Assembly (NCBI GenBank): GCA_016234725.1 | Contig: JACRAK010000005.1 | Coordinates: forward strand, 1 to 62,901 | Length of the DNA stretch: 62,901 bases | Direction of reading: 5' to 3' | Origin: Candidatus Azambacteria bacterium | GTDB lineage: Bacteria > Patescibacteriota > Minisyncoccia > GWC2-36-17 > WO2-46-25 | Part shown: positions 10,608 through 62,231 of the stretch, piece after piece | Layout: every line of letters begins with the position of its first letter | Numbering within the stretch: position 1 is the first letter of the stretch | Translations under genes and position numbers: made by a program | The notes under the pieces: model-generated | Told to the model about the DNA's origin: nothing | Databases searched by the model: none | The model's input: only the letters and a program-made list of their open reading frames with translations

Positions 10608-11636
10608 TTACTGGCCTGCCGATTGATAGATCGGCCCGATGATGGCAAGCGCGAGAAATAATACCACAATACCCACGATGACCAAAAGGATGGGTTCTAT
10701 CAGCGTAAACAGATTCTTTACGTTATTCTCAACTTCTTTTTGGTAGAACGACGCGAGAAAATCGAGGTTTCGTTCGATGCTTGCCGATTTTTCCCCTACT
10801 TCAAGCATTTGAATGTACAGCGGCGGGAAAAGCTTTCTATCCAAGAACGCGGAAATGGTATTCCCCTTGAGTATCTCCGGGATCACCCGCCTGATCGCGC
10901 CCTGAAACGCGTCGTTCCCCAAGCTCTCTGCCATGATCGCCAGCGATTCGTGAACGGGCACGCCGCTTTTGAGCAATGTCGCGAGCACTTTTGCCGAACG
11001 CGCAAGATACACCCGGCGGACGATACTGCCAGCGATCGGGAAATGAAGCACGGCGTGATCGGAAAATCTTTTTCCCGAGGGCGACCGGACAAAAAAATAA
11101 ATGCTGATGGCAAGTACGGCCATCGCAATAATCAGCATCATGCCGTATGCGGATACGAACGCCGCGAGCGCAAGTACTGCCCGCGTTGCGAGCGGAGGAT
11201 CCCCGCTCAACGACGAAAGGAGGTCTGTCACTGTTGGCAACACCGTGTAGCCAAGCACTGCCGCGACCGCAATGATCGCGCACAGCATGAACGCGGGGTA
11301 CATCAGCGCCGAGGTGAGCGTTTTCTTAAAAACCATCGCCGTCTCAATATGATCGGCAAGATATTCAAGATTATTCTCAAGCGTGCCCGATTTCTCTGCC
11401 GCCTTCACAACATTGACATAGAAAAACCCGAATGCGGAAGGGTGCGCCTCAAGCGCCCCGGAAAACTTTTGGCCCGCTTCGACGCGCTGAGCGATATCGA
11501 ATAATATTTTCCGAAACGAAGGGTTCCGTGACTGCTGTACCTGCGTCCGTATCGCCTGCGCGAGCGGAATATTCGCCTTCGCCATCACGGCGAGATTTTT
11601 GGTGAATATGAGATTATCTCTGTCGGTAATACGCAT
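10608..11636 (-). CDS. Type II secretion system F family protein (PilC/GspF paralog)
   Basis: 342 aa polytopic protein with two T2SSF-like repeats. Similar in organisation to the PilC at 30366-31595. Confidence 0.75.
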   Translation of the reverse strand: MRITDRDNLIFTKNLAVMAKANIPLAQAIRTQVQQSRNPSFRKILFDIAQRVEAGQKFSGALEAHPSAFGFFYVNVVKAAEKSGTLENNLEYLADHIETAMVFKKTLTSALMYPAFMLCAIIAVAAVLGYTVLPTVTDLLSSLSGDPPLATRAVLALAAFVSAYGMMLIIAMAVLAISIYFFVRSPSGKRFSDHAVLHFPIAGSIVRRVYLARSAKVLATLLKSGVPVHESLAIMAESLGNDAFQGAIRRVIPEILKGNTISAFLDRKLFPPLYIQMLEVGEKSASIERNLDFLASFYQKEVENNVKNLFTLIEPILLVIVGIVVLFLALAIIGPIYQSAGQ

Positions 11637-11680
11637 GTATTATTACTCTGAATTATGAAATGTATCTCTCATGTGATTAT

Positions 11681-11790
11681 AAGCCAGTATCCTCAATTCT
11701 TTCTTTAATCCTCTCACGCCCTTTATTTAAAATAATAATGAAGGGCTGCGCTTCCGTTAAGATAAAAGAAAGAATTGAGGATACTGGCTT
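11681..11790. repeat. Conserved-core long hairpin element, copy A
   Basis: 23 bp perfect stem aagccagtatcctcaattctttc / gaaagaattgaggatactggctt. It encloses a 64 nt core with inner hairpin GCCCTT..AAGGGC and CCGTTAAGAT. Confidence 0.75.
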
Positions 11791-11829
11791 AGCAAAGAAC
11801 CTGGCTTATTATTTCGTAATTCAAGGATA

Positions 11830-30365: not shown

Positions 30366-31595
30366 TTATATGTTATTCATCACCGAGTACATCGGCGTGA
30401 TCATGGAGAGCGCAAAAAACCCGACGCCGGTACCGATCACCACCATCATGATCGGCTCGATGATAGTGGAAAGATTTTTCGTAAGCTCGTTCACCTCGTC
30501 CTCGTAAAATTCCGCGAGCTTGGTAAGCACTTTGGTCAAGCTTCCGGTTTCCTCGCCGACCGCGATCATTTGGACCACCAGCGGCGGATACAGCCCTTTG
30601 TATTTTTTGAGCGATTCAAACAGCGTCTTCCCTTTCTGGATCTCAAGCGCCGCAGTTGAAAGTGACTCGGAAAAATAATGATTGGAAAGTGTCTTTGATA
30701 AAATTTCAAGCGCTTTGACGATAGGAACGCCCGAATCCACAAGAATGCCGAGCGTACGGCACAGCCGCGCAGAGTTCAGCTTGCGCGAGAGCCCCTTGAT
30801 AACAGGCATGCGCAAAATAAGGGCATCAAGCCCTTTCTTGCCGCCCGCGGTGCGAAGTACCAGCCGCATCACATAGATCAAGCCGATCACGCCGCCGATC
30901 GCAAAATACCAATAATTAAGCATGATATTGCTTAAAAAGATAAGTACCTTCGTAGAAGCGGGAAGCTCTGCGCCGATATCAAGAAAAGTGGCGGCGAGTT
31001 TTGGGACCACCAGCACCATCATGAGGTACCCTACGATAAGCATGACCACGAAAATAACGGCGGGATACATAAGCGCGCCGCGTACGCGCGACACGATATC
31101 GTGATCCTTTTTCATCTGGTCAGCAAGTCCATTGAGCACCTCTTCGAGATTCCCCGCAGTTTCGCCGATCCGTACCATATTCACGTACAGATCGGAAAAC
31201 GCATCGGGATGCGCGCCGATGCATTCCGAAAACGCCTTGCCCGCCTGCACGTTGTTTGCCACCTCCGCGATGATCGCTTTCAGTTTTTGATTTTCTGCCT
31301 GCTCTTCAAGCACCGACAGCGCTTTATTGAGCACAAGCCCTGCGCCGATCATCACCGCGAGATTGCGCGTGAACATGATCTTGTCAACAAGAGACACCCC
31401 GCGAAACGGCTTTGCGCCGCGCAATATCTTCCCGAGCGCTCCGGTGGTGGTCACCGTTCCTTCTTCGTTCGCCGATGTCATCACCGCTCCCTGCGCGCGT
31501 AAAATATGCGCGAGATCTTCCAGATCTTTCGCCTCTTGCGTCCCAGAACGTATTTCACCGTCTACCGCTCGCGCGGTATAAAGAAATTTTGGCAT
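30366..31595 (-). CDS. pilC: PilC (type IV pilus platform protein, T2SS F family)
   Basis: 409 aa, two T2SSF repeats, three TM segments. Immediately downstream of pilB. Confidence 0.85.
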   Translation of the reverse strand: MPKFLYTARAVDGEIRSGTQEAKDLEDLAHILRAQGAVMTSANEEGTVTTTGALGKILRGAKPFRGVSLVDKIMFTRNLAVMIGAGLVLNKALSVLEEQAENQKLKAIIAEVANNVQAGKAFSECIGAHPDAFSDLYVNMVRIGETAGNLEEVLNGLADQMKKDHDIVSRVRGALMYPAVIFVVMLIVGYLMMVLVVPKLAATFLDIGAELPASTKVLIFLSNIMLNYWYFAIGGVIGLIYVMRLVLRTAGGKKGLDALILRMPVIKGLSRKLNSARLCRTLGILVDSGVPIVKALEILSKTLSNHYFSESLSTAALEIQKGKTLFESLKKYKGLYPPLVVQMIAVGEETGSLTKVLTKLAEFYEDEVNELTKNLSTIIEPIMMVVIGTGVGFFALSMITPMYSVMNNI

Positions 31596-31656
31596 ATATT
31601 TATTATACTACTTTGCATTACAAAGCGTCAGATGCGAGGCGCGCCGAGCCGCGACT

Positions 31657-31766
31657 CGCTTCCCCCGTTCAATTCTTTCTTTTATCTTAACGGAAGTGCA
31701 GCTCTTCAATAATCCCTATATACAAGAGCGTGAACGGATTAAAGAAAGAATTGAACGAGGGAAGCG
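31657..31766. repeat. Conserved-core long hairpin element, copy B (core inverted relative to A and C)
   Basis: Stem cgcttcccccgttcaattctttc / gaaagaattgaacgagggaagcg (1 mismatch). The core reads atcttaacggaagtgcagctcttc...gagcgtgaacggattaaa. Inner hairpin GCTCTT/AAGAGC covaries with GCCCTT/AAGGGC of the other copies. Confidence 0.75.
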
Positions 31767-31805
31767 GAACAAAGCAGATGGCGGTTTGTAATGCGAAGTA
31801 CACAA

Positions 31806-36058: not shown

Positions 36059-36484
36059 TTATGCACCCATCTGCTTATGGGTCCTCTTCTTGCGGATAAG
36101 CTTGAGGTGGAGAAGGTTTTTTTGAAGCATCGACTTGGCTTCCGCCATTTCGCGTTCGGTGAGTTTCTCTTGCATCATCTTCTGCGCCTTCTCGCGCGCC
36201 TCGCTTGCCTTTTGCTCATCAAGCTCGTCGAACCGCTCCGCGCTGTCGGTGAGCAGCACGACGTTGTCTTGCGTTACGCGGAGCACGCCGCCGATCACGG
36301 CAAGATGCGTGCGCTCGCCGCCATGCGAAATCACCATCTCTCCTTCATGGATGATGCTGACAAGCGGCACATGGCCCGCAAGCACGCTGATCTCGCCGCC
36401 TGAGGTCGGCAAAATAAGCGACTCTGCGTCGCCCTCATAGACGACTTTTTCTTGCGTGATGATTTGCAGATGAAACGTTTTCAT
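36059..36484 (-). CDS. atpC: F1 ATP synthase epsilon subunit
   Basis: MKTFHLQIITQEKVVYEGDAESLILPTSGGEISVLAGHVPLVS... 141 aa. Confidence 0.9.
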   Translation of the reverse strand: MKTFHLQIITQEKVVYEGDAESLILPTSGGEISVLAGHVPLVSIIHEGEMVISHGGERTHLAVIGGVLRVTQDNVVLLTDSAERFDELDEQKASEAREKAQKMMQEKLTEREMAEAKSMLQKNLLHLKLIRKKRTHKQMGA

Positions 36485-36520
36485 TACTTTGAATTACAAA
36501 ATGTATCTCCTACGCGGTTA

Positions 36521-36632
36521 GAAGCGGTCATCCGCAACTCTTTCTTCCATCCGCTCGCGCCCTTTTATAGTTATAATAATGAAGGGCTGCGCTTCCGTTA
36601 AGATTGCAGAAAGAGTTGCGGATGACCGCTTC
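36521..36632. repeat. Conserved-core long hairpin element, copy C (between atpD and atpC)
   Basis: 24 bp perfect stem gaagcggtcatccgcaactctttc / gaaagagttgcggatgaccgcttc. Core in the same orientation as copy A. Confidence 0.75.
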
Positions 36633-36653
36633 ACAAAGAGCAATGTAAAGTTA

Positions 36654-38048
<1,395 letters not shown>

Positions 38049-39617
38049 TTAAAGGTCGTTCCCCGAATATGATAGATTAAAGCTTTTATTTATTAAAGGG
38101 AAGTCCGGCACGATGTTCCCCGGACCGGCATGTTCGATCAAGCTCCAATTCAAAAAAGAAGGGTCGCGCACGTCTACTCTGCTGATGTCGCCCTGCCCGT
38201 CGGTCATCACCACATACACGATCTCTCCCCGCCATCCTTCCACCATGCTCACGACAACCGCATTTTTTTCCAAAGAAAAACCCCCGCCTGCCGTTACCGT
38301 ATCGCTGCCGCCCGGCAATTTTTCGAGCGCTTCCTTGATGAGTTTATACGAAGAATATACCTCCTTGATGCGCACATAGAACCGTGCGTTGACGTCCCCC
38401 TCTTTGCCGGTCGCAACTGCAAGGTCGCAATGAGGGTACGCGGCGTACGGATGATCCGCCCGCACATCGTGCGCGATGCCCGCCGCTTTAGCCGCAACAC
38501 CCGTCGCGCCATGATCGCGCGCGACTTCGTGCGATACCACGCCGGTGTCTTTAAGCCGATTAAGCAGCGACGCGCTGTTTTCCGCGACATCGATGACCTG
38601 CGAGAAATCATTGATGATACGCCGCAATTCTTCAATGAGCTTTCCTTTTTCTTCTTTTGTAATATCTCGGGAGACGCCGCCGATCACGTTCACCATTCTC
38701 AAAAACCTGCTTCCGGTCAAACGCTCGTTGATCTGCATGACCATCTCGCGCAATCTGCCGCCGTTGGCGCCGCCGAAATTAAACCCGGTGTCCAGCATGA
38801 TCGCCCCGATGTCGCCGAAATGGTTCGCGAGCCGTTCAAGCTCCGCATATACGACGCGAAGATATTTTGAGCGCTCCGCCGCCTTCACGCCCCCGAGCCG
38901 CTCGATCGCCTGGCAGAACGCAAGCGAGTGGGAGAACGAACTGTCTCCCGATATCTTTCCCGACAGGCGGATCTTTTTTTCAAGCGGCAATGTCTCAAAT
39001 AATTTCTCGGTCCCTTTATGCACGAACCCGAGCCGCGGCTCAAGCGAAAGGATCTCTTCGCCCGCTACGTTGAACCGGAAATGCCCCGGCTCGATGATGC
39101 CCGCGTGAATGGGACCTACCGGGATCTCATACACTCCTTCGCCTTCCACCCGCTGAAAATCATACCGTCCATGCGCGCGCGGAGGCCTTTCCTTCCCGTT
39201 GAAATCCTTCCGCAACGGAAACACATCGGCAGGCCAATTTTCATGCAAGATAAGCGGCCGCGGGTCGGGATGCCCGACCGGGGTAAGACCGAAGAACGTT
39301 TTTATTTTCCTTTCATAATTCCACGCCTTATGGATGACCGGCGCGCATGAGGGAAATTCCTCCCTATTGCGGAGCGCGATAAAAGGAACAATGAACGCGC
39401 GTTCCTCGGGCGCGAAAAACACATAGAAAATTTTAAAACATCCGTGCTCGTTCCGCTCATCCGCCGCAGTGATCATTTTTAACGATAACGAATGTACGGC
39501 GTACAGCTTTGTGACGACATCCACGATCTCGTCTGCGGGCACTTCAAACAGCGCCGTATTCCCGCTCATGCGGGCGGTGAACTTTTCCGGAATGTAGTGA
39601 CGAATATTTTCTAGCAT
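38049..39617 (-). CDS. Fused NuoC-NuoD / HycE-like large subunit lacking the NiFe-ligating cysteines
   Basis: PVGPIHAGIIEPGHFRF and LEPRLGFVHKGTEK are typical of group 4 hydrogenase large subunits and NuoD. The L1 site reads ISGDSSFSH instead of RxCGxCxxxH. The C-terminus reads NLSYSGNDL instead of DPCxxCxx(R/H). Start taken at the ATG at 39617; the longer ORF runs to 39656. Confidence 0.8.
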   Translation of the reverse strand: MLENIRHYIPEKFTARMSGNTALFEVPADEIVDVVTKLYAVHSLSLKMITAADERNEHGCFKIFYVFFAPEERAFIVPFIALRNREEFPSCAPVIHKAWNYERKIKTFFGLTPVGHPDPRPLILHENWPADVFPLRKDFNGKERPPRAHGRYDFQRVEGEGVYEIPVGPIHAGIIEPGHFRFNVAGEEILSLEPRLGFVHKGTEKLFETLPLEKKIRLSGKISGDSSFSHSLAFCQAIERLGGVKAAERSKYLRVVYAELERLANHFGDIGAIMLDTGFNFGGANGGRLREMVMQINERLTGSRFLRMVNVIGGVSRDITKEEKGKLIEELRRIINDFSQVIDVAENSASLLNRLKDTGVVSHEVARDHGATGVAAKAAGIAHDVRADHPYAAYPHCDLAVATGKEGDVNARFYVRIKEVYSSYKLIKEALEKLPGGSDTVTAGGGFSLEKNAVVVSMVEGWRGEIVYVVMTDGQGDISRVDVRDPSFLNWSLIEHAGPGNIVPDFPLINKSFNLSYSGNDL

Positions 39618-39633
39618 ATGGTTGCAATAAGTT

Positions 39634-41079
39634 CTAATACGATGCCGCGACCGCACTCACCAACGTATACAGATACGCGGGCGGATGCACGCTCAGATAT
39701 ACGAATAAAACGACAAGCACAAAAGAAGGGATGATGAGCCACGCGCTCGATTCCCCTTGAGCGATCTCCTCCGGCTTTTCCCCGAACATCATCGCGTGAG
39801 TATGCTTCAGAAACGCGACAAATGCAACGATGAGCGAAAGCACGGCAACGATCACGGCAACCGGATGCGCCGCCATGCCTGCGGCCGCGATGTGCGCTTT
39901 GGTCAAAAACAACCCCAGCGGCGGGATGCCGCTTGCCGCGAGAAATCCGAAAATGAACAGCGCGCTCGTTGCGGGGATCGCGCGCAAGGCGCCCCGCACA
40001 TGGCGTATCTTTGTCGAGCTGTATTTCAAAAAGATGTTGCCTGCGGCAAAAAAGAGAATTGCCTTGGCCAGCGAGTGATACACCATGTGAAGCGCCGCCG
40101 CCAAGGCGCCGATGCCCCCGAACCCAAAACCCAGCGCCATCATGCCGGCATGTTCGATGCTTGAATACGCGAGAAGCCGCTTGTAATTTTTCTGAGCGAA
40201 CATAATGAACGCGGCAACAACGACCGACAGCACCCCGAGCGCCACCAGCAACTGGCCGGTGAACTCGGTACCCACCGCGCTATCCGTGATCGATTTGAAC
40301 CGCAGCATCGCGGCAAGCGCGACATTGAGCAATGCGCCGGAAAACAGCGCCGCGATCGGCGTCGGTGCCTTGCCGTACGCATCGGGCTTCCATGTGTGCA
40401 TGGGCGCAAGACCGATCTTCGTGCCATACCCGATCAGCACGAAGATGAATGCGATCTTCGCGATCACCGGATCCAGCGCTCCCGCATGCGACGACAGCAG
40501 CCCCCAGTCCACCAGCGGCATGCTTCCGCCCGTTTCCACCGACGTGAAATACAGCAATGTCCCGAAAAACCCGAGCAACAGGCCGACCGAATTGATGATC
40601 AGATATTTCCATGCCGCCTCCATCGCCGACGGCTTATTGTAAAAGCTTATGAGAAACGCCGTCGAGAGCGTGGTCGCTTCGATGGCGATCCACGTCAGGA
40701 TCGGGTTTGCGGTCGATGCGGCAAAAAGCATCGCGCCGACAAATAGGTTAAAGAAAAGAAAATACTGCCTCGTTCTGCTGCTGCCGATCACCTTTTTTTC
40801 CGCTTCTTCCCGTATATACGCTACCGAATAAAACGCCGCAGCGCACCCCACGACCGCGATCGTGGCGATCACCAATGCGCCGAGCGCGTCAACGGAAAAA
40901 TACACCGAGCGGGAATACACGCCGTCTTTCGCGACATTGAACGCAAGCAGTGCGGCAGATGCCAGCACCACGACAGAAGCGATCATGGTTGCCGCTTCCA
41001 TGACAGCTCTCCGCTTGGTGATAAGCGCGATACATGAAGCGATACACGGCGATGCGATGGCGAGGAATATAAGGCTCAT
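39634..41079 (-). CDS. Proton-conducting antiporter-like membrane subunit (HyfF / NuoN-M / MrpD-like)
   Basis: About 481 aa polytopic protein of the Proton_antipo_M type. Start taken at the ATG at 41079, adjacent to the upstream stop. Confidence 0.75.
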   Translation of the reverse strand: MSLIFLAIASPCIASCIALITKRRAVMEAATMIASVVVLASAALLAFNVAKDGVYSRSVYFSVDALGALVIATIAVVGCAAAFYSVAYIREEAEKKVIGSSRTRQYFLFFNLFVGAMLFAASTANPILTWIAIEATTLSTAFLISFYNKPSAMEAAWKYLIINSVGLLLGFFGTLLYFTSVETGGSMPLVDWGLLSSHAGALDPVIAKIAFIFVLIGYGTKIGLAPMHTWKPDAYGKAPTPIAALFSGALLNVALAAMLRFKSITDSAVGTEFTGQLLVALGVLSVVVAAFIMFAQKNYKRLLAYSSIEHAGMMALGFGFGGIGALAAALHMVYHSLAKAILFFAAGNIFLKYSSTKIRHVRGALRAIPATSALFIFGFLAASGIPPLGLFLTKAHIAAAGMAAHPVAVIVAVLSLIVAFVAFLKHTHAMMFGEKPEEIAQGESSAWLIIPSFVLVVLFVYLSVHPPAYLYTLVSAVAASY

Positions 41080-41080
41080 A

Positions 41081-41728
41081 TTATTCTTTGAGGCGCTGCA
41101 TGGCGGTGACATCAAGCGACCCGAATTGTTTATACATCATGGACGTGAATACGGTTGCCACGACCACCCACACTAAAATATCGAACATGATCCCCATCTG
41201 AAGCCCCGGCGCCTGTTCGAGCCCGGCGAACACCGCGAACGCGACGATGCTGTTTTCAAGCGACAAGATCCCGATCATCTGCGAGATCGCTCCTTTGCGG
41301 TTGACGATAAGGAACAGGGAAATGAGCATCATCGCGAGCGCAAGCGAGAGCATGCCTTCGCGCCCGTTGCCGAGAGCAACAAGCGGAGCGAAAATATGCG
41401 AACGCGTGAGCGCGGTGAGCGCAGCGACCGCGATCAGCGTCAACGGGACGCTCAGGTACGTGCTCGCAGAGAACTTCAACTGATGCCGCTTGATCAAATG
41501 CGCGAAAAACAGGGGCGCGATCAGCGTCTTCACGGCGAACGTCGCGAGCGCGACGAACAACAGCGGCCGCGAATCCGCTTCGATCGATGCCGCGAGCAAT
41601 ATCGTTGCCATCGCGGCGGATTGCGCACAATACAAAACCGCCGCCGTCGAATTCTTCTTCACCACGTGCAAAAACACCGCGGCAAGGAACATGATGACTA
41701 TCAATAATTGTACGAAAAGATGTTCCAT
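41081..41728 (-). CDS. HyfE-like small membrane subunit (NuoK-related)
   Basis: About 215 aa with 6-7 TM helices. The length and position match hydrogenase-4 component E. Confidence 0.6.
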   Translation of the reverse strand: MEHLFVQLLIVIMFLAAVFLHVVKKNSTAAVLYCAQSAAMATILLAASIEADSRPLLFVALATFAVKTLIAPLFFAHLIKRHQLKFSASTYLSVPLTLIAVAALTALTRSHIFAPLVALGNGREGMLSLALAMMLISLFLIVNRKGAISQMIGILSLENSIVAFAVFAGLEQAPGLQMGIMFDILVWVVVATVFTSMMYKQFGSLDVTAMQRLKE

Positions 41729-41960
41729 GATCACATACCTTGCATTATAAAATGGCTTTTGAGATATTTTTTAGGTAATTTTGAGCGAGACGAAGCAAAA
41801 ATTTTGAAGGTCGAATCAAAGTTCGACATTGCTGTTTGTGAGCCAATCGCTTCGCTCTTGGACAAACAGGGAACATATACGGCGTATACATTGAAAAGTT
41901 TTTGCAAAGCCGCAGCCGAAATTACCAAAAAAGAGCCAAAATGTATTTTATAATTCAAGG

Positions 41961-42887
41961 TCATATAAGGCCGATGGCGATAACGCTTAAAATAAATGAT
42001 ACGAACAGCACGTCCGGCAAGCGGAAGAACCGGAGTTTTGCGATGACCGATTCCACGACCGCAATGCTCGCACAAAACGCAAGCGCTTTTATCGCAAATG
42101 CGACAAGCGCACCCGCAAGAGCGACCATGCTTGCATCATGCGCGATGCCCCACGGGAAAAACAAGTTCGCCCCGAGCGCAATGAAGATCATGAGCTTGTT
42201 TGCGGACGCCCACTCTATCAGCGCGAGCCGCTTTCCCGAATACTCAAGGATCATCGCTTCGTGGATCATGGTGAGCTCAAGATGCGTGGAAGGATTATCG
42301 AACGGAAAGCGCTTGTTCTCCGCAAGCAGCACGATAAAGAACCCGGCGAACGCGAAAAATGCCGGCAGCATCGATGTGAGCTCGGCGGAAGCAATGGTCT
42401 CTGCGACCCTAAACACATTGCTCGTGCCGCTCATCAGCGCGACCGTCAACAGCGAAAAGAGCAGACCGCCTTCTGCGAGCGCGGCAACCGTCACTTCCCT
42501 GCTTGATCCAAACCCTCCGAACGCGCTGCCCGTATCCATGCCGGCAAGCGCAACGAAAAACGTCGCGGCCGCCATGAGATAGACGATAACGAGGATATCG
42601 CTCGTGAATCCATTCGCCATAAACGACGCGAACACGGGAACGCTCGCGCCGACCACCAGCGTGATGGCAAAGATGGCGAGCGGCGCAAAACGAAAGATCC
42701 ACGATGCGTCGGCGCTGATCACCTCATCCTTATGCAAAAGCTTCCATATATCGCGATACGGCTGAAGCACGCTTGCGCCCTTCCGGTTCTGCAACACCGC
42801 CTTGATCTTCCTGATAACGCCGATAATAAGCGGGGAAAGCGCCGGTATGCACAGTATTTGCATTGTCCACAGAATGCCCAGTGTCAT
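41961..42887 (-). CDS. NuoH / HycD / HyfC-like membrane subunit
   Basis: IIGVIRKIKAVLQNRKGASVLQPYRDIWKLLHKDEV (the NuoH/HycD N-terminal signature). 308 aa. Confidence 0.8.
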   Translation of the reverse strand: MTLGILWTMQILCIPALSPLIIGVIRKIKAVLQNRKGASVLQPYRDIWKLLHKDEVISADASWIFRFAPLAIFAITLVVGASVPVFASFMANGFTSDILVIVYLMAAATFFVALAGMDTGSAFGGFGSSREVTVAALAEGGLLFSLLTVALMSGTSNVFRVAETIASAELTSMLPAFFAFAGFFIVLLAENKRFPFDNPSTHLELTMIHEAMILEYSGKRLALIEWASANKLMIFIALGANLFFPWGIAHDASMVALAGALVAFAIKALAFCASIAVVESVIAKLRFFRLPDVLFVSFILSVIAIGLI

Positions 42888-42889
42888 AG

Positions 42890-44944
42890 TTACAAAATTA
42901 CATACACAAGCAATACAAGCAACGCGACGAATATATACAGCACATACGCGTTGATGTTGCCGCTCTGGATCGTTTTAACGCGCTCGGAAAATTTCGTCAA
43001 CGCGACCTGCAACGGCTCATACAGATATGCCCGGTAAATATCACTGATGCCGAGCGTGATCGTCCGTGCTTTGGGGAAATACCTCGCCGTGGCATCGCGA
43101 TATTCTATGCCCGTCTGTTTCGTGGGCTTCAGTATCCCTTTGAATATCATAATGATCGAGCGCGAGAATGCGGTCGCGGTGATCTCTGCGCGGGACGTGG
43201 GCGGCGTACCGCAATCCCATGTTTCTCCGATGACCACTTTCTGTTTCCGGTATGCCGCGCGAAGCCCGAGCGCCGCGATGCATGCCGCGACAATGAACAT
43301 CATCGCGATCGCCGGCGCGGAAGCCGAAGCAAAACCGTTCTGCACGGATATCTGCTCGAGCGGCGAAACGGCGAACGGCAACTCTGCGGCGCCGAACTTT
43401 CCGATATCGCGCGCCACCCGTCCGATCGTCAAAGAAACGCTTCCGGAAAACACGCCGAACACCAGCGCGAGCAGCGCCAAAAACGCCATGCCTGTCCGCA
43501 TCGAAAACGAGGATTCTTTCGCGTGCCGCGCCTCCTCGCTCCGCGGCCGCGCAAGGAACACCGCGCCGACCGCTTTTACGAAACACGCGAGCGCGAGCCC
43601 GCCGGTGAGCGCGAGCGCCCCCACCGCCAGCACGAATATCCAGCTTGCCGCGCTCGGAAGCGCAAGAATGCCGCCAAAGAGTGCCTGGAATGTCAGCCAT
43701 TCGCTGAAAAATCCGTTGAACGGCGGGAGCGCGGAGATCGCCATGGAACCGATCAGGAAAAAGAACGCGGTCTGCGGCATCCGCTTGATAAGCCCGCCGT
43801 ATTCTTCGATGTTCCGGGTGTGCGTCGCAGACACCACCGCGCCGGCGCTTAAGAATAGGAGCGATTTGAATGTCGCGTGATTGAGCGTATGAAACAGCGC
43901 GGCGACGATGCCCAGCGCCGCAAGCGGCAGCATGCCGGAAGAAGAAAACACCATCGCGCTCCCCACGCCAAGCAAAATGATGCCGATATTCTCAATGCTG
44001 TGATACGCAAGCAGCCGCTTCAGATCGTGTTCGGTCAGCGCGTATAATACTCCCAAAAGCGATGAAACCGCTCCCAAAACAAGCACCGTCAGCCCCCACC
44101 ACAGCGGGATATCGGTGAAGACATCGAGGAAGATCTTTATCATCATGTAGATGCCGGTCTTGATCATGACGCCCGACATCAGCGCCGACACGTGCGACGG
44201 AGCCGCGGGGTGCGCATCGGGAAGCCAGATATGGAGCGGAATGATGCCCGCCTTGGTGCCGAATCCGGCAAGTGCGAGCACAAAAACGACGCTTGCCGCA
44301 AACGGGGGAATGGATGCGATATTGTGCGCGATCGCTGCAAATTGGAACGACCCGGTGAATTTATACATCACCAAAAACGCTAAAAGGATGAAAGCGGTGC
44401 CGATATGCGTCATCACGAAATACAAAAACCCCGCGCGCACGTTGCGGTGATCGTTGCGCTCATACACCACCAAAAAATACGAAGCGACGGACATGATCTC
44501 CCACGCAATGAGAAATACCAATGCGTTCGATGCAGACACGACCAAAAGCATCCCTGCGATGAAAAAATTATAGAAAAACCCGAGGGATCCGATGTTATAT
44601 TTCTTATAAAAATGCCTCACATACCCCATGCCATAGATCGAGCACAAAAAAGCGATCAGCGAGATGACAAAAATAAAGAACGCGGAAAGCTTATCAATAT
44701 GAAACGACACCGAAAGCAGCGGGAATGCCGCGCTGGCATCAACGATGTACTCGGGCGCACTCACCGCAGTGACCGCAAGAAGCGCGTAGACGATACCCCA
44801 CGCCGACCCGAGCACGGCGAACGCGTTGCTCCAGACATTGGCTGCCGTGTCGCTTTTTCTCAATGCCAGCGCGCCGACAGCGCCGATCGCAAATGAAGCG
44901 ATCAACGCGCCAAACCCGTATGAAGATAAGATCGCTTCTATCAT
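42890..44944 (-). CDS. HyfB / NuoL / MrpA-like antiporter-type membrane subunit
   Basis: 684 aa polytopic protein of the Proton_antipo_M type. Its start overlaps the stop of the NuoB-like gene. Confidence 0.8.
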   Translation of the reverse strand: MIEAILSSYGFGALIASFAIGAVGALALRKSDTAANVWSNAFAVLGSAWGIVYALLAVTAVSAPEYIVDASAAFPLLSVSFHIDKLSAFFIFVISLIAFLCSIYGMGYVRHFYKKYNIGSLGFFYNFFIAGMLLVVSASNALVFLIAWEIMSVASYFLVVYERNDHRNVRAGFLYFVMTHIGTAFILLAFLVMYKFTGSFQFAAIAHNIASIPPFAASVVFVLALAGFGTKAGIIPLHIWLPDAHPAAPSHVSALMSGVMIKTGIYMMIKIFLDVFTDIPLWWGLTVLVLGAVSSLLGVLYALTEHDLKRLLAYHSIENIGIILLGVGSAMVFSSSGMLPLAALGIVAALFHTLNHATFKSLLFLSAGAVVSATHTRNIEEYGGLIKRMPQTAFFFLIGSMAISALPPFNGFFSEWLTFQALFGGILALPSAASWIFVLAVGALALTGGLALACFVKAVGAVFLARPRSEEARHAKESSFSMRTGMAFLALLALVFGVFSGSVSLTIGRVARDIGKFGAAELPFAVSPLEQISVQNGFASASAPAIAMMFIVAACIAALGLRAAYRKQKVVIGETWDCGTPPTSRAEITATAFSRSIIMIFKGILKPTKQTGIEYRDATARYFPKARTITLGISDIYRAYLYEPLQVALTKFSERVKTIQSGNINAYVLYIFVALLVLLVYVIL

Positions 44945-45492
44945 AGTGTTTTCTTTATCGCATGGGATGCACGCTCGTCGTTGGCCTCCAATATCTTCAA
45001 TATATGACTGAGGATCGTTTTTGGCGACGGAGGGTCTCCGGGAATATGATACTGCACCGGAACGGTATGTTCCGCGCCGTCGGTTGTCGCATACGACCCT
45101 TTAAAAATGCCGCCGTCGATCGCGTCATCGCCGACCGCCACCACGATCTTGGGCTCCGGCATACAGTCGTATGCTTTTTTGAGCGCTTCCTGCATGTTGC
45201 GCGTGACGGGTCCCGTCACCATCAGCATGTCTGCGTGCTTGGGAGAAGCGACAAAATGGACGCCGAACCGATCGACATCGTAGAACGCATTCCCCAGCGC
45301 GACGAGTTCCTGCTCTGCGGCGTTATCGGACCCCGCATCCACCATCCTGATGGCGAGCGATCCGCGAAACAGCTTTTTCACTTTTTCATGTATCGCTTCG
45401 CCGACCGCGACCATCTCTCCGTCGCGCATAAATGCGTCTAGAGGAATGACCTTGTTTTCCGTAGAGAAAATTTTAAATAAAAGTTTCAACAT
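44941..45492 (-). CDS. NuoB / HycG-like small subunit lacking all four [4Fe-4S] cysteine ligands
   Basis: The fold-defining stretch DRFGVHFVASPKHADMLMVTGPVT is conserved. The ligand positions read VDAGSDNAAEQE, VAVGDDAIDGG and IPGDPPSP, where the canonical sequences carry Cys (..C..C.., G.C, CPP). Confidence 0.8.
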   Translation of the reverse strand: MLKLLFKIFSTENKVIPLDAFMRDGEMVAVGEAIHEKVKKLFRGSLAIRMVDAGSDNAAEQELVALGNAFYDVDRFGVHFVASPKHADMLMVTGPVTRNMQEALKKAYDCMPEPKIVVAVGDDAIDGGIFKGSYATTDGAEHTVPVQYHIPGDPPSPKTILSHILKILEANDERASHAIKKTL

Positions 45493-45508
45493 ATGGGTTA
45501 TATATGGG

Positions 45509-46402
45509 CTATGCCATCGCTTCGGCCGCAGAACTGATCTCGGCGATCTCTTGCGTGATGCTCTGCTGGCGCGACTGATTATAATGCGACACGAGGTCTC
45601 CCAGAAGCTCTTCGGAATTTTTCGTCGCGTTATGCATCGCGATCATGCGTGCCGAATGCTCGGATGCATTCGATTCAAGCACCGTCTGATACAATTGCAT
45701 TTCCATCAATTGCGGAACCACCGCCTCAAGCACCTCCTCAGCCGACGGCTCGAATGAAAAGCGCCGCGCGCTCACCGCCTTCTGTTTCTGTGCGGATACG
45801 AAAAGTTCCCTTGCCGACAATAATTCGCTTTTCTCGATGGGAAGCAGCTGCTTGATCGCCGGCATCTGGGACGTAGACGAAAGAAAACGGTTGAACGCCA
45901 CGAAAACGGTATCCCGTTTCTCGGCGCGAAGCTCGTCAAAAAGAATGCGTACCGCGGGCCGCACCTCCACCACATGCGGGAGATTATCAAGCCGCGAGAA
46001 CGCGGCGACCACTTCTCGCCCCGTGCGCCGCGCGTAATCCGCGGCGGTTTTCCCGATGGTAATAAATGCGAATTTTTTCTTGGAGTTCGCGTCCAGGAAT
46101 TTTTCAAGAAAGCGGAACAGATTGCCGTTCAGGCCGCCGCACAGCCCTCGGTCGGACGACACCACCACGATGATACCTTCGCCTGTCGCTCTGGGACGCA
46201 AAAGAAAATGATCTTTGTTCTCTATTTTCTCGATCGCCTCGACCAAGATCTCCCACGCCTGCGCCGCATACGGCCGGGTGCCGAGCGCTTTATCCTGCGC
46301 TTTTTTCATTTTCACCGCCGCGACAAGCTCCATCGCGCGCGTGATCTTCTTCGTCGCTTTAACGCTCTTGATGCGCCGTTTGATTTCCTTGATCTTTGCC
46401 AT
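45509..46402 (-). CDS. atpG: F1 ATP synthase gamma subunit
   Basis: MAKIKEIKRRIKSVKATKKITRAMELVAAVKMKKAQ... 297 aa. Confidence 0.95.
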   Translation of the reverse strand: MAKIKEIKRRIKSVKATKKITRAMELVAAVKMKKAQDKALGTRPYAAQAWEILVEAIEKIENKDHFLLRPRATGEGIIVVVSSDRGLCGGLNGNLFRFLEKFLDANSKKKFAFITIGKTAADYARRTGREVVAAFSRLDNLPHVVEVRPAVRILFDELRAEKRDTVFVAFNRFLSSTSQMPAIKQLLPIEKSELLSARELFVSAQKQKAVSARRFSFEPSAEEVLEAVVPQLMEMQLYQTVLESNASEHSARMIAMHNATKNSEELLGDLVSHYNQSRQQSITQEIAEISSAAEAMA

Positions 46403-46405
46403 AGA

Positions 46406-47908
46406 CTAATGTTCCCGCTTCTTGAATTCGCCGATCATGGACCGCAGTTCCGCCTCGATGTCGCCGCTGATCTTTTCTGCCGCAGCGATCTTTCCAAACA
46501 CATCCGGATGCACCGTTTGTGCGAATTGCAAAAGGTCTTTCTCGAATTTCCGCACTTTCGCGGGAGCGATATCGTCGGTAAGACCGGAGGTCACCGCAAA
46601 GATCGCAAGCACCTGTTCTTCGGTCGGCATCGGCTCGTTCTGATCTTGTTTGAGCAATTCCACCAGCCGTTTTCCGCGCTCCAGCCGCATTTTGGTCTGT
46701 TCGTCGAGGTCCGCTTCGAATTGCGCGAATGCCGCAAGCTCCCAATATTGCGCAAGCTCCAGCCGCATCTTCCCTGCAACGCTTTTCATCGCTTTGGTCT
46801 GCGCGGAAGAGCCGACGCGCGACACCGAAAGCCCCGCATTGATCGCGGGCCGCATGCCGGCGTAGAACATGTCGGTATCAAGATAGATCTGCCCGTCGGT
46901 AATGGAAATGACATTGGTCGGGATATATGCGGACACATCGCCCCCCTGCGTCTCAATGATGGGAAGCGCGGTCAAGCTGCCGCCGCCGTGTTCTTTGCTC
47001 AAGCACGCCGCGCGCTCAAGCAGGCGCGAATGAAGATAAAATACGTCGCCGGGATACGCCTCGCGGCCGGGCGGACAGCGCAACAACAGCGAGATCTGGC
47101 GATACGCCCACGCATGCTTTGAAAGGTCGTCGTACACGACGAGCACGTCCTTGCCCTGCGCCATGAAATATTCTCCCATGGCCGTCGCCGCATACGGTGC
47201 GAGATATTGCAGCGCCGCGGATGACGACGCGGACGCGTTCACCACGATCGTGTAATCCATCGCTCCGTGCTGTTCGAACAAACGCACGATCTTGGCCACC
47301 TTCGAATCCTTTTGCCCGACGGCGCAATAGACGCACACCACGTTGTCTCCTTTCTGATTTAAAATGGCATCGATCGCAATGGTCGTTTTTCCCGTCTGCC
47401 GGTCGCCGATGATAAGCTCGCGCTGGCCTCTCCCCACGGGAACCATCGCGTCGATCGCCTTGATGCCGGTCTTGAGCGGCGTCTTCACCGATTTGCGGGT
47501 GATCACGCCCGGCGCTATTTTTTCCACGACCATCGTTGCGTCGGCCGGGATCGCCCCGCGCCCGTCAAGCGGCTTCCCCAGCGGATCCACCACGCGCCCG
47601 ACGAACTTTTCTCCCGCGGGCACTTCAAGCACTTTCCCCGATGCGGTCACGCGGTCGCCTTCTTTAATATGCGCGAAGTCGCCGAGAATGATCGCGCCGA
47701 TCTCGTTCTCCTCAAGATTCATCGCGACACCCCAGGTATCTCCGGGAAAGCCGACCATTTCTGATGCCATGCACTCGGAAAGCCCCGCGATGCGCGCGAT
47801 GCCGTCGCGCACCTCGGTCACTACGCCCGTTTTTTGCACGGTCGTCCCTTCCTCGAATGCGCCTATCTCTTTCTTGATCTTTTCGATGATTGCTTTTGCT
47901 TCTTTCAT
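46406..47908 (-). CDS. atpA: F1 ATP synthase alpha subunit
   Basis: Walker A GDRQTGKT. 500 aa with full-length AtpA similarity. Confidence 0.95.
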
Positions 47909-47914
47909 ACCGTT

Positions 47915-48328
47915 TTATGCCGTCAATTGTTTTTTTAATTTTTCCAATTTTGTCCGCACGGTGCCGTCGATGATCATCTCGGGCGTGCGCACCGCAAGCC
48001 CTCCGATAAGAGAATCATCCACGGCAAAGCGCGCATCCACGTTTGCACTGTCTTTCTTTACCAATGCGGCGATCGCGCGGACCACTTCTTCCTTTTCTGC
48101 ATCCGCAAGCGCTGTGGCAGACACAACGTCCGCCGCCACAATACCTTTCTTTTTTTGTTCAATATTCGTAAGCTCCTTTTGAATTTTTGGCACCAATCCC
48201 TCAAGCCGGCGCGTGTGAAGATACGCGGCAAACGCCCGTGCAATGTCCGCCTCTTCTTTTTCGCTCTCTGCGCCCTGCACAAGCCCCCAAAGCGCCGCAG
48301 CGTATATGGCGTGTTTCTGGTGCTTCAT
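47915..48328 (-). CDS. atpH: F1 ATP synthase delta (OSCP) subunit, short form
   Basis: 137 aa. C-terminal DDSLIGGLAVRTPEMIIDGTVRTKLEKL is typical of OSCP. Position is between atpF and atpA. Confidence 0.8.
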   Translation of the reverse strand: MKHQKHAIYAAALWGLVQGAESEKEEADIARAFAAYLHTRRLEGLVPKIQKELTNIEQKKKGIVAADVVSATALADAEKEEVVRAIAALVKKDSANVDARFAVDDSLIGGLAVRTPEMIIDGTVRTKLEKLKKQLTA

Positions 48329-48330
48329 AT

Positions 48331-48816
48331 CTATGCGATCGTCTCCTTAATAAGGCGCTCGTGCCGTTCTTTGGTGATCTCTTCTTTCAGCACTTTTTCC
48401 GCCACCGCGATCGCGATGTCTCCCGCTTCCCGCTTGATCTCTGTCATCGCTTTGTCGCACTCCGCGCCGATCTCTTTTTTCGCCCGCTCAATAAGGCGCG
48501 CCGCTTCGTCGTTCGCTTTTTTCACAAGCCCGTCTTTCACTTTTTCCGCATCGTCGATCGCCTGCTCGATGATGGATTTCGCTTTCTCTTGCGCATGCTT
48601 CACCTCGCGCGCCGCGCGCTCGTCCGCTTCTTTCTGCGAGCGGGCGATCGCGTCCGCCTGCGCCATGCTTTCTTCTATTTTTTTCCGCCGCGCCTCCAAA
48701 ATACCGAGAAGCGGCTTATACAAAAACCGGTGCAGCACGAACAACAGGATCGAGAAATTCACGACCTGAAACAAAAACAACCGCCAATCGATCCCCAGTT
48801 TTGTGAAAATTTCCAT
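48331..48816 (-). CDS. atpF: Fo ATP synthase subunit b
   Basis: N-terminal TM helix LFLFQVVNFSILLFVL followed by a long charged helix. 161 aa. Confidence 0.85.
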   Translation of the reverse strand: MEIFTKLGIDWRLFLFQVVNFSILLFVLHRFLYKPLLGILEARRKKIEESMAQADAIARSQKEADERAAREVKHAQEKAKSIIEQAIDDAEKVKDGLVKKANDEAARLIERAKKEIGAECDKAMTEIKREAGDIAIAVAEKVLKEEITKERHERLIKETIA

Positions 48817-48872
48817 GCCAGTGCATCACTTGAAAGCCCTGCTCTCTTCCTAAAAATAAGATCCTGCGCGGG

Positions 48873-49142
<270 letters not shown>

Positions 49143-49198
49143 TTATATGATAACGATTGTCTTTTGTACCACGGTTTTGCAGAAAATGCAATACGGCG

Positions 49199-49951
49199 TC
49201 AATGCGCTTCTTCATGGTGCGTCGTCGCCACCTTCACGAAAATGAGCATAAGGCCGGCGAATATCGTCGCCTGAATGAGTCCCACCATCACCTCAAACAG
49301 CATGAACGGCACAGGCAAAAATAGCGGCATAAAATAGCTCATCACCAAAATAAGCACTTCGCCCGCAAAAATATTCCCAAACAGCCGGAACGAGAACGAA
49401 ACCAGCCGCGCCGCTTCGCTTATCGCCTCGATAAGGCCGATGAAAAACAAAAGGGGGCTTTTCAGATTGACGAACTTCTTCGCGTAATTCCACCCGCCGA
49501 TGACCGCGACCCCCATCGTTTGCACCATGATCACCGCAATGACAGAAAGCGCGATCGTGACATTCAGGTCGGTATTCACCGAACGCAGAAACGGCACCGT
49601 ATGTTCGCCGTTAAAAAAGGTGACGCTCCCGACGCCGGGAAGGAATTCCATCCAATTCGCCGTCACCACGAACAAAAACACCGTAACGATGAACGGAAAC
49701 ACCTTCATTGCAAGCTTTCGGTCGCCAAGCACCTCTTCCATCACCCCAAGCGCCGACTCCATCACCAGCTCGACGACATTTTGAATGCCCCGAGGAGAAG
49801 CAAACACAAGCTTTCTTCGCGCCACAAACGCAAGCGCGACAAGCACCGCCACCGCGCCCAATGAAGCGACGAGCGTATTGGTCACCGGCATGCCGAACAC
49901 ATCAAACAAGTGTTCCGGCGTAATAACGATTTCCAGTCCTTTTCCTTCCAT
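49199..49951 (-). CDS. atpB: Fo ATP synthase subunit a
   Basis: 250 aa. Conserved Arg region LVSFSFRLFGNIFAGE. Confidence 0.9.
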   Translation of the reverse strand: MEGKGLEIVITPEHLFDVFGMPVTNTLVASLGAVAVLVALAFVARRKLVFASPRGIQNVVELVMESALGVMEEVLGDRKLAMKVFPFIVTVFLFVVTANWMEFLPGVGSVTFFNGEHTVPFLRSVNTDLNVTIALSVIAVIMVQTMGVAVIGGWNYAKKFVNLKSPLLFFIGLIEAISEAARLVSFSFRLFGNIFAGEVLILVMSYFMPLFLPVPFMLFEVMVGLIQATIFAGLMLIFVKVATTHHEEAH

Positions 49952-61324: not shown

Positions 61325-61368
61325 ATATGTAATTACTCTTGCATTACGAAACCACACCATGTTCTTGT

Positions 61369-61480
61369 GCCGACCATCACTTGCAATCTTTCTTTTATCT
61401 TAACGAAAGCGCAGCCCTTCATTATTATTCTTATAAAAGGGCGTGAGTGGATTAAAGAAAGATTGCAAGTGATGGTCGGC
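61369..61480. repeat. Conserved-core long hairpin element, copy D (core oriented as in B)
   Basis: 24 bp perfect stem gccgaccatcacttgcaatctttc / gaaagattgcaagtgatggtcggc. Confidence 0.75.
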
Positions 61481-61522
61481 AATAACCAACATAAATATAT
61501 TTCGTAATGCAAGGAAATCGAT

Positions 61523-61563
61523 TAAAAAAGCAACACGCAACCTTATGCAAAAGGTTGCGTGTT
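61523..61563 (-). terminator. Rho-independent terminator after the HU gene
   Basis: Minus strand AACACGCAACCTT-ttgcat-AAGGTTGCGTGTT followed by GCTTTTTTAAT. Confidence 0.65.
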
Positions 61564-61585: not shown

Positions 61586-61864
61586 TTATTTCTTCACGGA
61601 ATCCTTCAACCCTTTGCCAGCTTTGAATTTTGGCACCTTGGTTGCGGCGATCTGGATCTTTTCCCCTGTCTTCGGGTTTACGCCCTGGCGTGCAGCTCGG
61701 GCCTTCACACAAAATGTGCCGAAACCGGAGATCGCCACTTCGTCACCCTTGGACAATGCGCCTTGGATGGTGCTAAACACCGCGTCCACTGCGTCTTGTG
61801 CCGCCTTTTTTGTCTCCAACCCCGCCTTTGAAAGCACTGACTCTACTAATGCGTCTTTATTCAT
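61586..61864 (-). CDS. hup: HU-family DNA-binding protein
   Basis: MNKDALVESVLSKAGLETKKAAQDAVDAVFSTIQGALSKGDEVAISGFGTF...RQGVNPKTGEKIQI. The ORF-track N-terminal extension is rejected. Confidence 0.9.
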   Translation of the reverse strand: MNKDALVESVLSKAGLETKKAAQDAVDAVFSTIQGALSKGDEVAISGFGTFCVKARAARQGVNPKTGEKIQIAATKVPKFKAGKGLKDSVKK

Positions 61865-61979
61865 ATATTTGATTAAAACGTTAGCTACAAAACGACCTTT
61901 AAAAAATAAAATAATGATTACTTCTATAGTATACCAAAGAAACATAAGCAATACAAGGGTTTTTAAGGAAAGCCGAAAG

Positions 61980-62012
61980 AAAAAAGCGGGGACCGATGTC
62001 CCCGCTTTTTTG
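61980..62012. terminator. Bidirectional Rho-independent terminator
   Basis: AAAAAGCGGGGA-ccgatg-TCCCCGCTTTTTT. Confidence 0.65.
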
Positions 62013-62231
62013 TGTATCCCCATTATTAGGAGTACACGATGGGATAATATGCGTCCTTCCTTTGGGAAGGACAAGGCGGTGGGCAGTACAAACGCACAGG
62101 AATTATCGTGCTTTCCACCAGAAAACAGATGATTCCCTCGCGGATAACGTCGTGCCTCTTTGGCTCCTTGATCTCGTCTTTGAACGATTCCAGATGCTGT
62201 GCCATAACCCACCTCCTTTTTGCAGTAAAAG

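Follow-up and report, generated by a model that had tools for sequence, protein, structure and literature searches.

Hairpins between the genes of an Azambacteria contig

The 62,901 nucleotides of contig JACRAK010000005.1 of a Candidatus Azambacteria bacterium (assembly GCA_016234725.1), called the window in what follows, contain four hairpins of about 110 nucleotides, each just upstream of a gene: copy A before a pilC-like gene, copy B between pilB and pilC, copy C between atpD and atpC, and copy D before a SHOCT gene. An initial annotation, made from the letters alone, had picked out these four copies, and they lie where it placed them, with the limits of the hairpins refined by a few nucleotides. 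The evidence presented here suggests that they probably belong to a family of non-autonomous fold-back (palindromic) mobile DNA elements restricted to Patescibacteria, in which the hairpin itself is the heritable unit.

The window holds exactly four copies. A covariance model with 41 family members as input, run with filters off, scores them at 125 (A), 117 (B), 112 (C) and 128 bits (D), all on the core-sense strand, and the runner-up in the window reaches 22 bits. A 23-nucleotide core pattern, allowed up to three mismatches, has 4 matches in the window versus 0.00 expected from shuffled sequence.

Each hairpin consists of an asymmetric core between two arms that pair as a stem. The stems, described at first as near-perfect, have no mismatch in A, C and D and one in B, and their refined lengths are 25 to 28 base pairs. 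The inner hairpin of the core is GCTCTT/AAGAGC in B and GCCCTT/AAGGGC in the other three copies, the neighbouring genes are all on the minus strand, and the core is oriented one way in A and C and the other way in B and D, all as first annotated. Other parts of that description stand with amendments: the core is common to the copies, but copy C deviates from the consensus at both ends (TTCCATCC, GATTGCAG); the inner stem ends are shared, but the inner stem of D is one nucleotide shorter; the motif noticed before the ATG codons is present, but copy A has it as cATAATTCAGAGTA and its distance to the start codon is 0 to 13 nucleotides; the SHOCT gene does neighbour copy D, but its likeliest start is 61324, not the start of the longest open reading frame (ORF) at 61360.

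Within the window this motif, GTAATKCAARG, is nearly confined to larger units in which the hairpins are set (Table 1), and A, B and D have an inverted second copy of it beyond the hairpin; segment C keeps a single one (36487-36502). The terminal motifs pair as an outer helix of 14-15 base pairs, so that the whole intergenic region, entirely occupied by the unit, folds as a fold-back of about 190 nucleotides. From the outside in, its layout is the 14-15 bp helix, an internal loop, a 27-bp helix and the core; inside the core, an A·A mismatch is followed by a helix of 3 bp, then by an asymmetric internal loop (7/14 nt), a helix of 6 bp and finally a loop rich in A and T. The folding z-scores of the units, on both strands and versus shuffles, range from -8.6 to -13.3. 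Oriented by the core, the flanks common to the copies read ..TTGAATTACGAAATGT.. on the left and ACAAGAACATGGTGTGGYTTCGTAATKCAAG on the right. Compared with A, C and D, copy B has its core turned around with respect to its flanks; against the flank called X, the hairpin lies inverted in copy B and in L025, L047 and L048, where L-numbers are labels of the loci compared with the window. The inner flanks of unit B are homologous to units of L074 and L088 that bear module Z, a second small hairpin to which we return below, and which takes the place of the core in a fifth fold-back of the window, unit E.

Table 1. Positions of the hairpins and of the units that contain them, within the window.
Feature	Position	Strand	Arms, core and termini	Surroundings
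Copy A hairpin	11680-11791	+	Arms 11680-11706 / 11765-11791, 27 bp, perfect; core 11707-11764	
Unit A	11637-11829	+	Termini 11646-11661 and 11811-11826, forming a 14-bp helix	Between the stop of a GDE_C gene and the start of a T2SSF (pilC-like) gene
Copy B hairpin	31657-31766	- (core)	26-bp arms, 1 mismatch; rare core variant GCTCTT/AAGAGC	
Unit B	31596-31805	-	Termini 31611-31625 and 31783-31798	Between pilB stop and pilC start
Copy C hairpin	36521-36632	+	25-bp arms, perfect; 62-nt core	
Inserted segment C	36487-36653	+	Direct TAA(T) repeats at both sides	atpD/atpC junction; missing in three relatives
Copy D hairpin	61368-61481	- (core)	28-bp arms, perfect	
Unit D	61325-61522	-	Termini 61336-61351 and 61499-61514	From the terminator of an HU-family gene to the start of the SHOCT gene (61324)
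Unit E (fifth fold-back)	41738-41960	-	Termini as in the other units (CCTTGAATTATAAAAT / ATTTTATAATGCAAGG); module Z at 41843-41871 replaces the hairpin core	Between nuoH and a nuoK-like gene

A hairpin family of Patescibacteria

One core-pattern scan each of representative genomes and of metagenomes yielded about 40 copies in metagenome-assembled genomes (MAGs) of Patescibacteria (Saccharibacteria, Azambacteria and others) and 57 metagenome loci, from groundwater. After removal of duplicates, about 70 copies with distinct arms are left. Lone matches in other phyla come without the remainder of the core and are chance. A plasmid or phage origin was considered and rejected: viral contigs, plasmids and phages contain no copy, and blastn gave no match at E<=1.

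The initial annotation did not recognise the core from any RNA family, and the Rfam scans bear this out: at the gathering threshold the window has tRNAs only, with no family reached by the hairpins, and permissive scans of C, D and E return just plant microRNA-precursor models far below their cut-offs, which is what generic long hairpins give. The core sequence was not found in the searchable literature, nor did the literature searched contain a report of small mobile repeats in Patescibacteria. The family is apparently undescribed so far and specific to this phylum.

A typical copy has a near-invariant asymmetric core of 58-62 bp flanked by inverted arms of 23-31 bp, each with a conserved inner part of about 13 bp (CAATTCTTTCTTT/AAAGAAAGAATTG) and a variable outer part of 12-16 bp, for a total of 110-120 bp with no conserved ORF. 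The stem is 20 to 36 bp long, with a mode of 27, and 52 of 70 copies fall between 25 and 28 bp. Mismatches affect 40 of the 1855 pairs (2.2%) in the roughly 70 distinct copies. Many arms are variations on GCCGCCATCACC..CAATTCTTTCTTT, with a conservation that falls off outward from the core, and pyrimidines make up 69% of the variable portion of the 5' arm.

Two other readings of the core were rejected. As a peptide (MKGCASVKIKER, loosely like the N-terminus of L36), the copies would have just 13 core-encoded residues in common, several lack a start codon, and the lengths are arbitrary. As for a mini-hairpin GCGCUUCCGU within the core, its would-be pairing position varies (G, T, A or C) without compensation. 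At one contig end of a Saccharibacteria MAG (CAYIEP010000029.1, L053:1-300), the palindrome around the core extends over more than 100 nucleotides per side with few mismatches; it may be real and centred on the core, or be an effect of assembly.

Pairing of the arms

Pairing statistics were computed on an alignment of 41 diverse copies and 500 shuffles. The covariation of the stems, which the initial annotation had left to a statistic, is far above that of the shuffles: 96.8% of the cells are paired, versus 71%; 385 cells are changed on both sides, versus 92; and the covariation score is 0.675, versus 0.149. No shuffle attains the observed value of any of the three, and the covariation signal is lost when the partner column is shifted by 1 to 3 positions.

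The kind of pairing matters as much as its extent. Most of the variable positions of the stem show all four Watson-Crick pair types, and G·U pairs occupy about 2 of some 860 cells (columns 7-27 of the variable stem). RNA helices under selection tolerate wobble pairs; copying one DNA arm from the other yields no G·U. With respect to flanking genes, 26 cores are in sense and 14 in antisense orientation (p = 0.08), and a further 11 have convergent or divergent genes on their two sides; which strand of the core is transcribed thus differs between copies. Taken together, strict Watson-Crick pairing and mixed orientation point to a palindrome at the DNA level rather than to a selected RNA fold.

The initial annotation had proposed a structured RNA or processing module, which we do not retain as primary explanation, given the strict pairing, the presence of the core in either orientation with respect to transcription, and the failure of Rfam to match it. 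In such a module selection would act on a processing site, for RNase III or of another kind, or on stabilisation of the mRNA, within operons; the core would bind a protein as RNA, and mobility would be secondary or absent. We judge this unlikely, even though the units do lie within operons where they must be transcribed (pilB-pilC, atpD-atpC, nuoH-nuoK), both of their strands fold far better than shuffles, with the z-scores given above, and the clustering of stem lengths at 25-28 bp would fit a double-strand-specific RNase. The asymmetry of the arms in purines and pyrimidines is also identical on either transcript, and the would-be G·U mismatches number 17 on the antisense-core strand versus 8 on the sense strand. 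Yet G·U is nearly missing from the 1855 pairs, unlike in selected RNA helices; either strand of an asymmetric and invariant core is transcribed, depending on the copy; and, as described in the next section, close relatives lack the element at the same junctions while elements with the same arms are present at unrelated sites. Since units are co-transcribed inside operons, a side effect at the RNA level is still likely.

Empty sites and travelling arms

Comparison of orthologous intergenic regions reveals that relatives differ in the presence, the absence and the orientation of the element. The clearest example is copy C. In loci L119, L120 and L121, whose atpC homologues are 86-91% identical to that of the window, atpD and atpC abut or overlap. 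These sites are empty: they read GCA-TAATG, and the window reads GCA-TAA(T)-(about 167 nt)-TAA(T)G. Copy C is thus an insertion with a direct repeat of 3-4 bp at both sides. The insertion of segment C leaves both the stop and the start codon intact, and its target contains no palindrome.

All collected DNA was scanned for the two flanks of a copy lying adjacent, which brings the number of occupied/empty pairs to nine: atpD-atpC and eight more, namely L079/L111, L015/L096, L048 and L112/L081, L072/L025, L080/L114, L081/L096, L066/L017 and window D/L063. From L111 to L079, the sequence ..TAATA-TATG.. becomes ..TAATA-TATTCA(hairpin and one flank)..ACGC-TATG.., with a TAT/TA repeat. In L015, a hairpin with only short unrelated flanks separates a stop codon from an ATG; in the empty site of L096 the distance between these two is 4 nucleotides. 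No clear repeat is present at the junctions of L015. Unit D is missing entirely from the orthologous site of L063, in flanks that are 91-93% identical. The inserted piece can be flank-hairpin-flank, a hairpin with one flank, or a hairpin alone, and insertion takes place in the gap of a few bases that separates a stop codon from the following start, often inside an operon.

A small mobile palindromic element had been among the first suggestions, in the form of one that inserts at the apex of pre-existing palindromes. The nine pairs, and arms that move with the element, uphold the mobility; the apex insertion is refuted where tested, as the empty atpD-atpC, L096 and L111 sites hold no palindrome. 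The idea that arms are copied from nearby or target sequence was rejected as well: no variable arm has a further match within its own locus, and the empty sites contain neither arms nor palindrome.

That arms travel can be seen from copy B: over 118 nucleotides that take in its arms, it is 96.6% identical to a hairpin that L063 carries at another site. The nesting there has three levels (L063:860-1140): the core of an outer hairpin is interrupted by module Z, which itself holds a complete inner hairpin, the one nearly identical to copy B. Related arm lineages are found at loci with unrelated surrounding genes (for example L018/L080; L022/L081/L090; L016/L113/L117; L037/window A; L080/window D), and they differ by a few changes, every one of which is mirrored on the opposite arm. 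Arms that recur at unrelated loci are not locus-specific, as they had been called, but lineage-specific. Nested hairpins occur in L040, L042, L063, L071, L111 and L114; with the chimeric hairpin of L005, described below, they indicate that the elements insert into one another and probably recombine.

Evolution of the arms and inversion of the core

How stems change can be followed at orthologous sites. L082 and L104, the same site in strains about 5% diverged, have stems that differ at two positions; both differences are mirrored, and each stem is perfect. L076 and L088 mix the stem alleles of the two co-existing strains and are either recombinants or assembly chimeras. At larger distances, between genomes about 90-95% identical, the arms can be entirely different, the loop variants can differ and the orientation can be opposite (for example L011/L050, L048/L112); the L048/L112 site is empty in a third relative, L081. 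Mirrored substitutions and whole-arm swaps together imply that stems change both gradually, with mirroring, and by replacement of a cassette, and hairpin cassettes are replaced faster than the surrounding DNA diverges. At the start of CAYHUB010000001.1 (L005) stands a chimeric hairpin, with a left arm like that of L011 and a right arm like that of L064: it stems either from recombination between elements or from an assembly chimera due to identical cores.

In L059 and L092, two loci that represent the same site and whose flanks are about 88-93% identical, the arms are the same and the core of about 58 nucleotides is exactly inverted. Five other orthologous pairs are in opposite orientation, with replaced arms. 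These observations establish inversion on the scale of evolution. Where one locus was assembled more than once, the orientation agrees; consensus contigs cannot reveal a minority orientation. Of the flip/flop core that the initial annotation had envisaged, the evolutionary inversion is thus supported, with no evidence of switching within a population or of a dedicated recombinase.

Perfect arms and core inversion would both result if one arm were copied from the other at the DNA level. The likeliest route would be template switching at the hairpin during replication, selection on an RNA fold being a less likely cause. Template switching between the arms of an inverted repeat homogenises and extends the arms, and inverts the spacer (PMC8604942; PMC8794818; PMC13100816). 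Inverted repeats maintained in this way resemble the present ones in their perfect arms, mirrored substitutions, occasional arm extension and spacer inversion, all obtained with no dedicated enzyme, and we infer that template switching is the most likely cause of the perfect Watson-Crick arms, of the mirrored substitutions and of the inversion of the core. However, template switching is a mutational process of general occurrence, not a family of elements: it accounts neither for the dispersal of the hairpins nor for the near-invariance of the 58-nt core and of the inner arm, the constancy of stem length and the asymmetry of the arms in pyrimidines and purines.

The features beyond the reach of template switching point to a factor acting in trans, which would recognise the apex and the shape of the folded strand. 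The core, the inner arm and the narrow range of stem lengths would then form the cis-site of a trans-acting enzyme; if shape and apex were what that enzyme recognised in the hairpin, extruded or single-stranded, the stem base would be free to vary. Once co-transcribed, the element would form a very stable double-stranded RNA hairpin in either orientation, which would be tolerated and may be processed like REP (repetitive extragenic palindromic) and Correia elements. In a more extreme version, the element would be defined by shape: the enzyme would read the invariant apex of a single strand in its folded form and cleave the stem at a set distance of about 27 bp, and the hairpin would be resynthesised from itself in each round. 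We find this version improbable. If true, the flip/flop isomers and the self-complementary, sequence-free ends would be direct products of the chemistry of transposition or replication, and organisms with minimal genomes would have, on their chromosomes, a cellular equivalent of the rolling-hairpin termini of the parvovirus type.

Parvovirus terminal repeats are also the model for a cis-site of a single-strand-specific HUH nickase. A nick in the internal loop of the core, followed by rolling-hairpin or rolling-circle-like copying, would produce flip/flop and arm-from-arm copying at once. The architecture fits, from the long perfect stem through the A·A mismatch, the 3-bp helix, the 7/14-nt loop and the 6-bp helix to the A/T-rich loop; the arms are always perfect, and flip/flop is observed in L059/L092. 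The antisense core TCTTTCTTTTATCTTAACGG is, in addition, loosely like the nick region TCTTTCTTATCTTG/ATAATA of pC194 (PMC5037232). This likeness is weak and may be chance: it needs a 2-nt gap in sequence of low complexity and, given the many comparable nick sites, lies within what chance would give (about 0.1, by a rough calculation of our own). As there is no similarity to any plasmid or phage, and no HUH gene in the window or beside any copy, and as template switching accounts for both features without a dedicated enzyme, we hold the involvement of such a nickase to be quite improbable.

An invertible promoter switch, or inverton, deserves even less credence. A promoter, TTAACG-17 nt-TATTAT, would here be located within the core, on the antisense-core strand, and a flip of the core would toggle the downstream gene. 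Perfect inverted repeats do border the core, cores in both orientations are found at orthologous sites with identical arms, and A and D have a promoter-like match of 9 out of 12 positions at the same place. But such matches are at chance level (2 found versus about 1.0 expected from shuffled sequence), inspection of the alignment shows that the spacing is lost in other common loop variants, and orientation is not biased toward a promoter facing the downstream gene. No recombinase gene lies near any copy, and the segment of 58 bp is, to our knowledge, far shorter than known recombinase-driven switches. Identical re-assemblies of a locus always have one orientation, a weak test since these are consensus assemblies.

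The best-supported reading of the family is thus a mobile, palindromic DNA element whose arms homogenise themselves and whose core can invert; a dedicated structured RNA and a phase-variation switch are less likely.

Points against a mobile element

Several observations weigh against this reading. A Pfam search found no transposase, recombinase or HUH domain in 49 ORFs of the window and one ORF of L064. When the 1110 ORFs of element-bearing loci, that is, of up to 14 kb around the copies, were clustered all-against-all, no gene family recurred beside the copies other than through orthologous neighbourhoods. There is no sign of an autonomous parent with the same ends: of 24 pairs of termini, 17 span 100-300 bp, and none clearly encloses a unit the size of a gene. 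Classical transposons conserve their terminal bases; here the tips of the hairpins are the most variable part of the element. Junction repeats are short and A/T-rich, and clear in only 2 of the 3 clean cases, the other pairs being too diverged; target duplication of the transposase type is not established. The replacement of both arms, in L011/L050 and L048/L112, is too fast for template switching and neutral drift, and needs a putative re-insertion or gene conversion. Finally, a purely neutral DNA model does not explain the 69% pyrimidine bias or the tight stem length of 27 bp.

Comparison with known systems

[quoted passage not shown] Target-site repeats are TAA(T) at C and TAT/TA at L079, none is clear at L015, and the other pairs are too diverged to tell. 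MITEs have conserved termini shared with a transposase-encoding parent, but the outer 12-16 bp of the hairpins differ between copies.

REPINs are doublets of REP sequences that form hairpins and are mobilised by RAYT transposases. Like the present hairpins, they are non-autonomous intergenic elements of about 100 nucleotides that fold as a long hairpin of single-stranded DNA or RNA, have many dispersed copies per genome, and keep part of the hairpin solely as pairing, with mirrored changes (PMC3116915). Their conservation is the reverse: REP 16-mers are conserved at the ends and the middle is variable, whereas in Patescibacteria the apex is conserved and the base variable. The variable ends of the Patescibacteria family bear no inverted tags of the GTAG/CGTC type, its conserved sequence being central, and the loci of up to 14 kb around the copies contain no RAYT gene. 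In situ inversion of an asymmetric centre, as found here, is not among the features of REPINs in PMC3116915.

Correia elements (Correia repeat enclosed elements, CREE, or NEMIS), restricted to Neisseria, are similar in size, about 100-155 bp, and likewise have a conserved core with a direction, set between long inverted repeats. They duplicate the target site, vary in presence from strain to strain, lie near gene starts and are co-transcribed, and their hairpin RNA is bound by RNase III (PMC2649163). The Patescibacteria family shares with them presence and absence between relatives, the position near gene starts and co-transcription. However, Correia inverted repeats are conserved, with two end variants, whereas the outer arms of the present family differ between copies; neither the 26-bp repeat ends nor the core of Correia elements is found in it, the sequences have no similarity, and the hosts belong to a different phylum.

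Integron attC sites are recombination sites recognised as folded single strands, with structure rather than sequence conserved over much of the stem, a trait that the present hairpins share. But in attC sites it is the stem base (R and L boxes) that is conserved and the apex that varies, the reverse of the Patescibacteria family, and no integrase or cassette array accompanies the hairpins. As to invertons, promoter-like matches inside the core are at chance level, and no site-specific recombinase was found in the window and the neighbourhoods of the copies. The family works most like REPINs and Correia elements and is a member of neither: it lacks the conserved ends that define them, and its conservation is reversed, with an invariant apex and a free base.

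Module Z and gene context

Module Z (CCCTGTTTGTCCAAGAGCGAAGCGATTGG...; CCCTGTTTGTCCAAGAGCGAAGCGATTGGCAACAAACAG..., itself a hairpin) recurs in many Patescibacteria loci and has no Rfam match. It is found alone in fold-back units with the same termini, in the internal loop of the core (L071, L114), and between core and arm (L040, L042, L111).

The two T2SSF (pilC-type) genes of the window, at 10608-11636 and 30366-31595, each have a hairpin unit directly upstream, and in L016 and L087 a copy lies just 3' of a homologue of the pilB type (T2SSE). This association could reflect an old shared insertion that was duplicated with the genes, or a preferred target. Directly upstream of unit D, a hairpin of the classical terminator type (61535-61560, minus strand) follows the gene of an HU-family DNA-binding protein (61586-62212, minus strand). 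If the longest ORF, with its GTG start, is real, this protein is extended at the N-terminus by about 115 residues.

The F-type ATP synthase operon of the window (36059-49951, minus strand) is split: atpB-E-F-H-A-G are followed by complex-I-like genes (nuoB, nuoL-like, nuoH, nuoK-like, nuoM/N-like and a fused nuoC/D), after which come atpD and atpC. The order nuoCD-atpD-atpC is the same in L120; in L119, atpG is followed by a gene of 254 amino acids with no Pfam hit and then by atpD, with no nuo genes in the part seen. Such an arrangement is unusual for a genome of the candidate phyla radiation (CPR).

A Shine-Dalgarno-like sequence is found upstream of only 4 of the 43 long ORFs of the window, and plain A/T-rich sequence precedes the starts: translation initiation in this host is largely independent of Shine-Dalgarno sequences. 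The terminal motif of the units consequently need not supply a special ribosome-binding signal, and insertions just upstream of start codons may be tolerated because the host hardly uses such signals.

What the family means

Identical 60-nt cores across a genome are a likely cause of assembly breaks and chimeras in CPR MAGs, L005 and L076/L088 being possible examples, and standard pipelines would misread the very strong covariation signal as that of a structured RNA.

The genomes of Patescibacteria are tiny and streamlined. In them, the family inserts with precision between stop and start codons and leaves unbroken the essential operons that receive it (ATP synthase, type IV pilus, complex-I-like genes). 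The layout of the element, an invariant and invertible apex over a stem base that is free in sequence but always perfect, is the opposite of that of every well-studied bacterial palindromic repeat, and it raises the question of how shape, instead of sequence, can define the ends of a mobile element.

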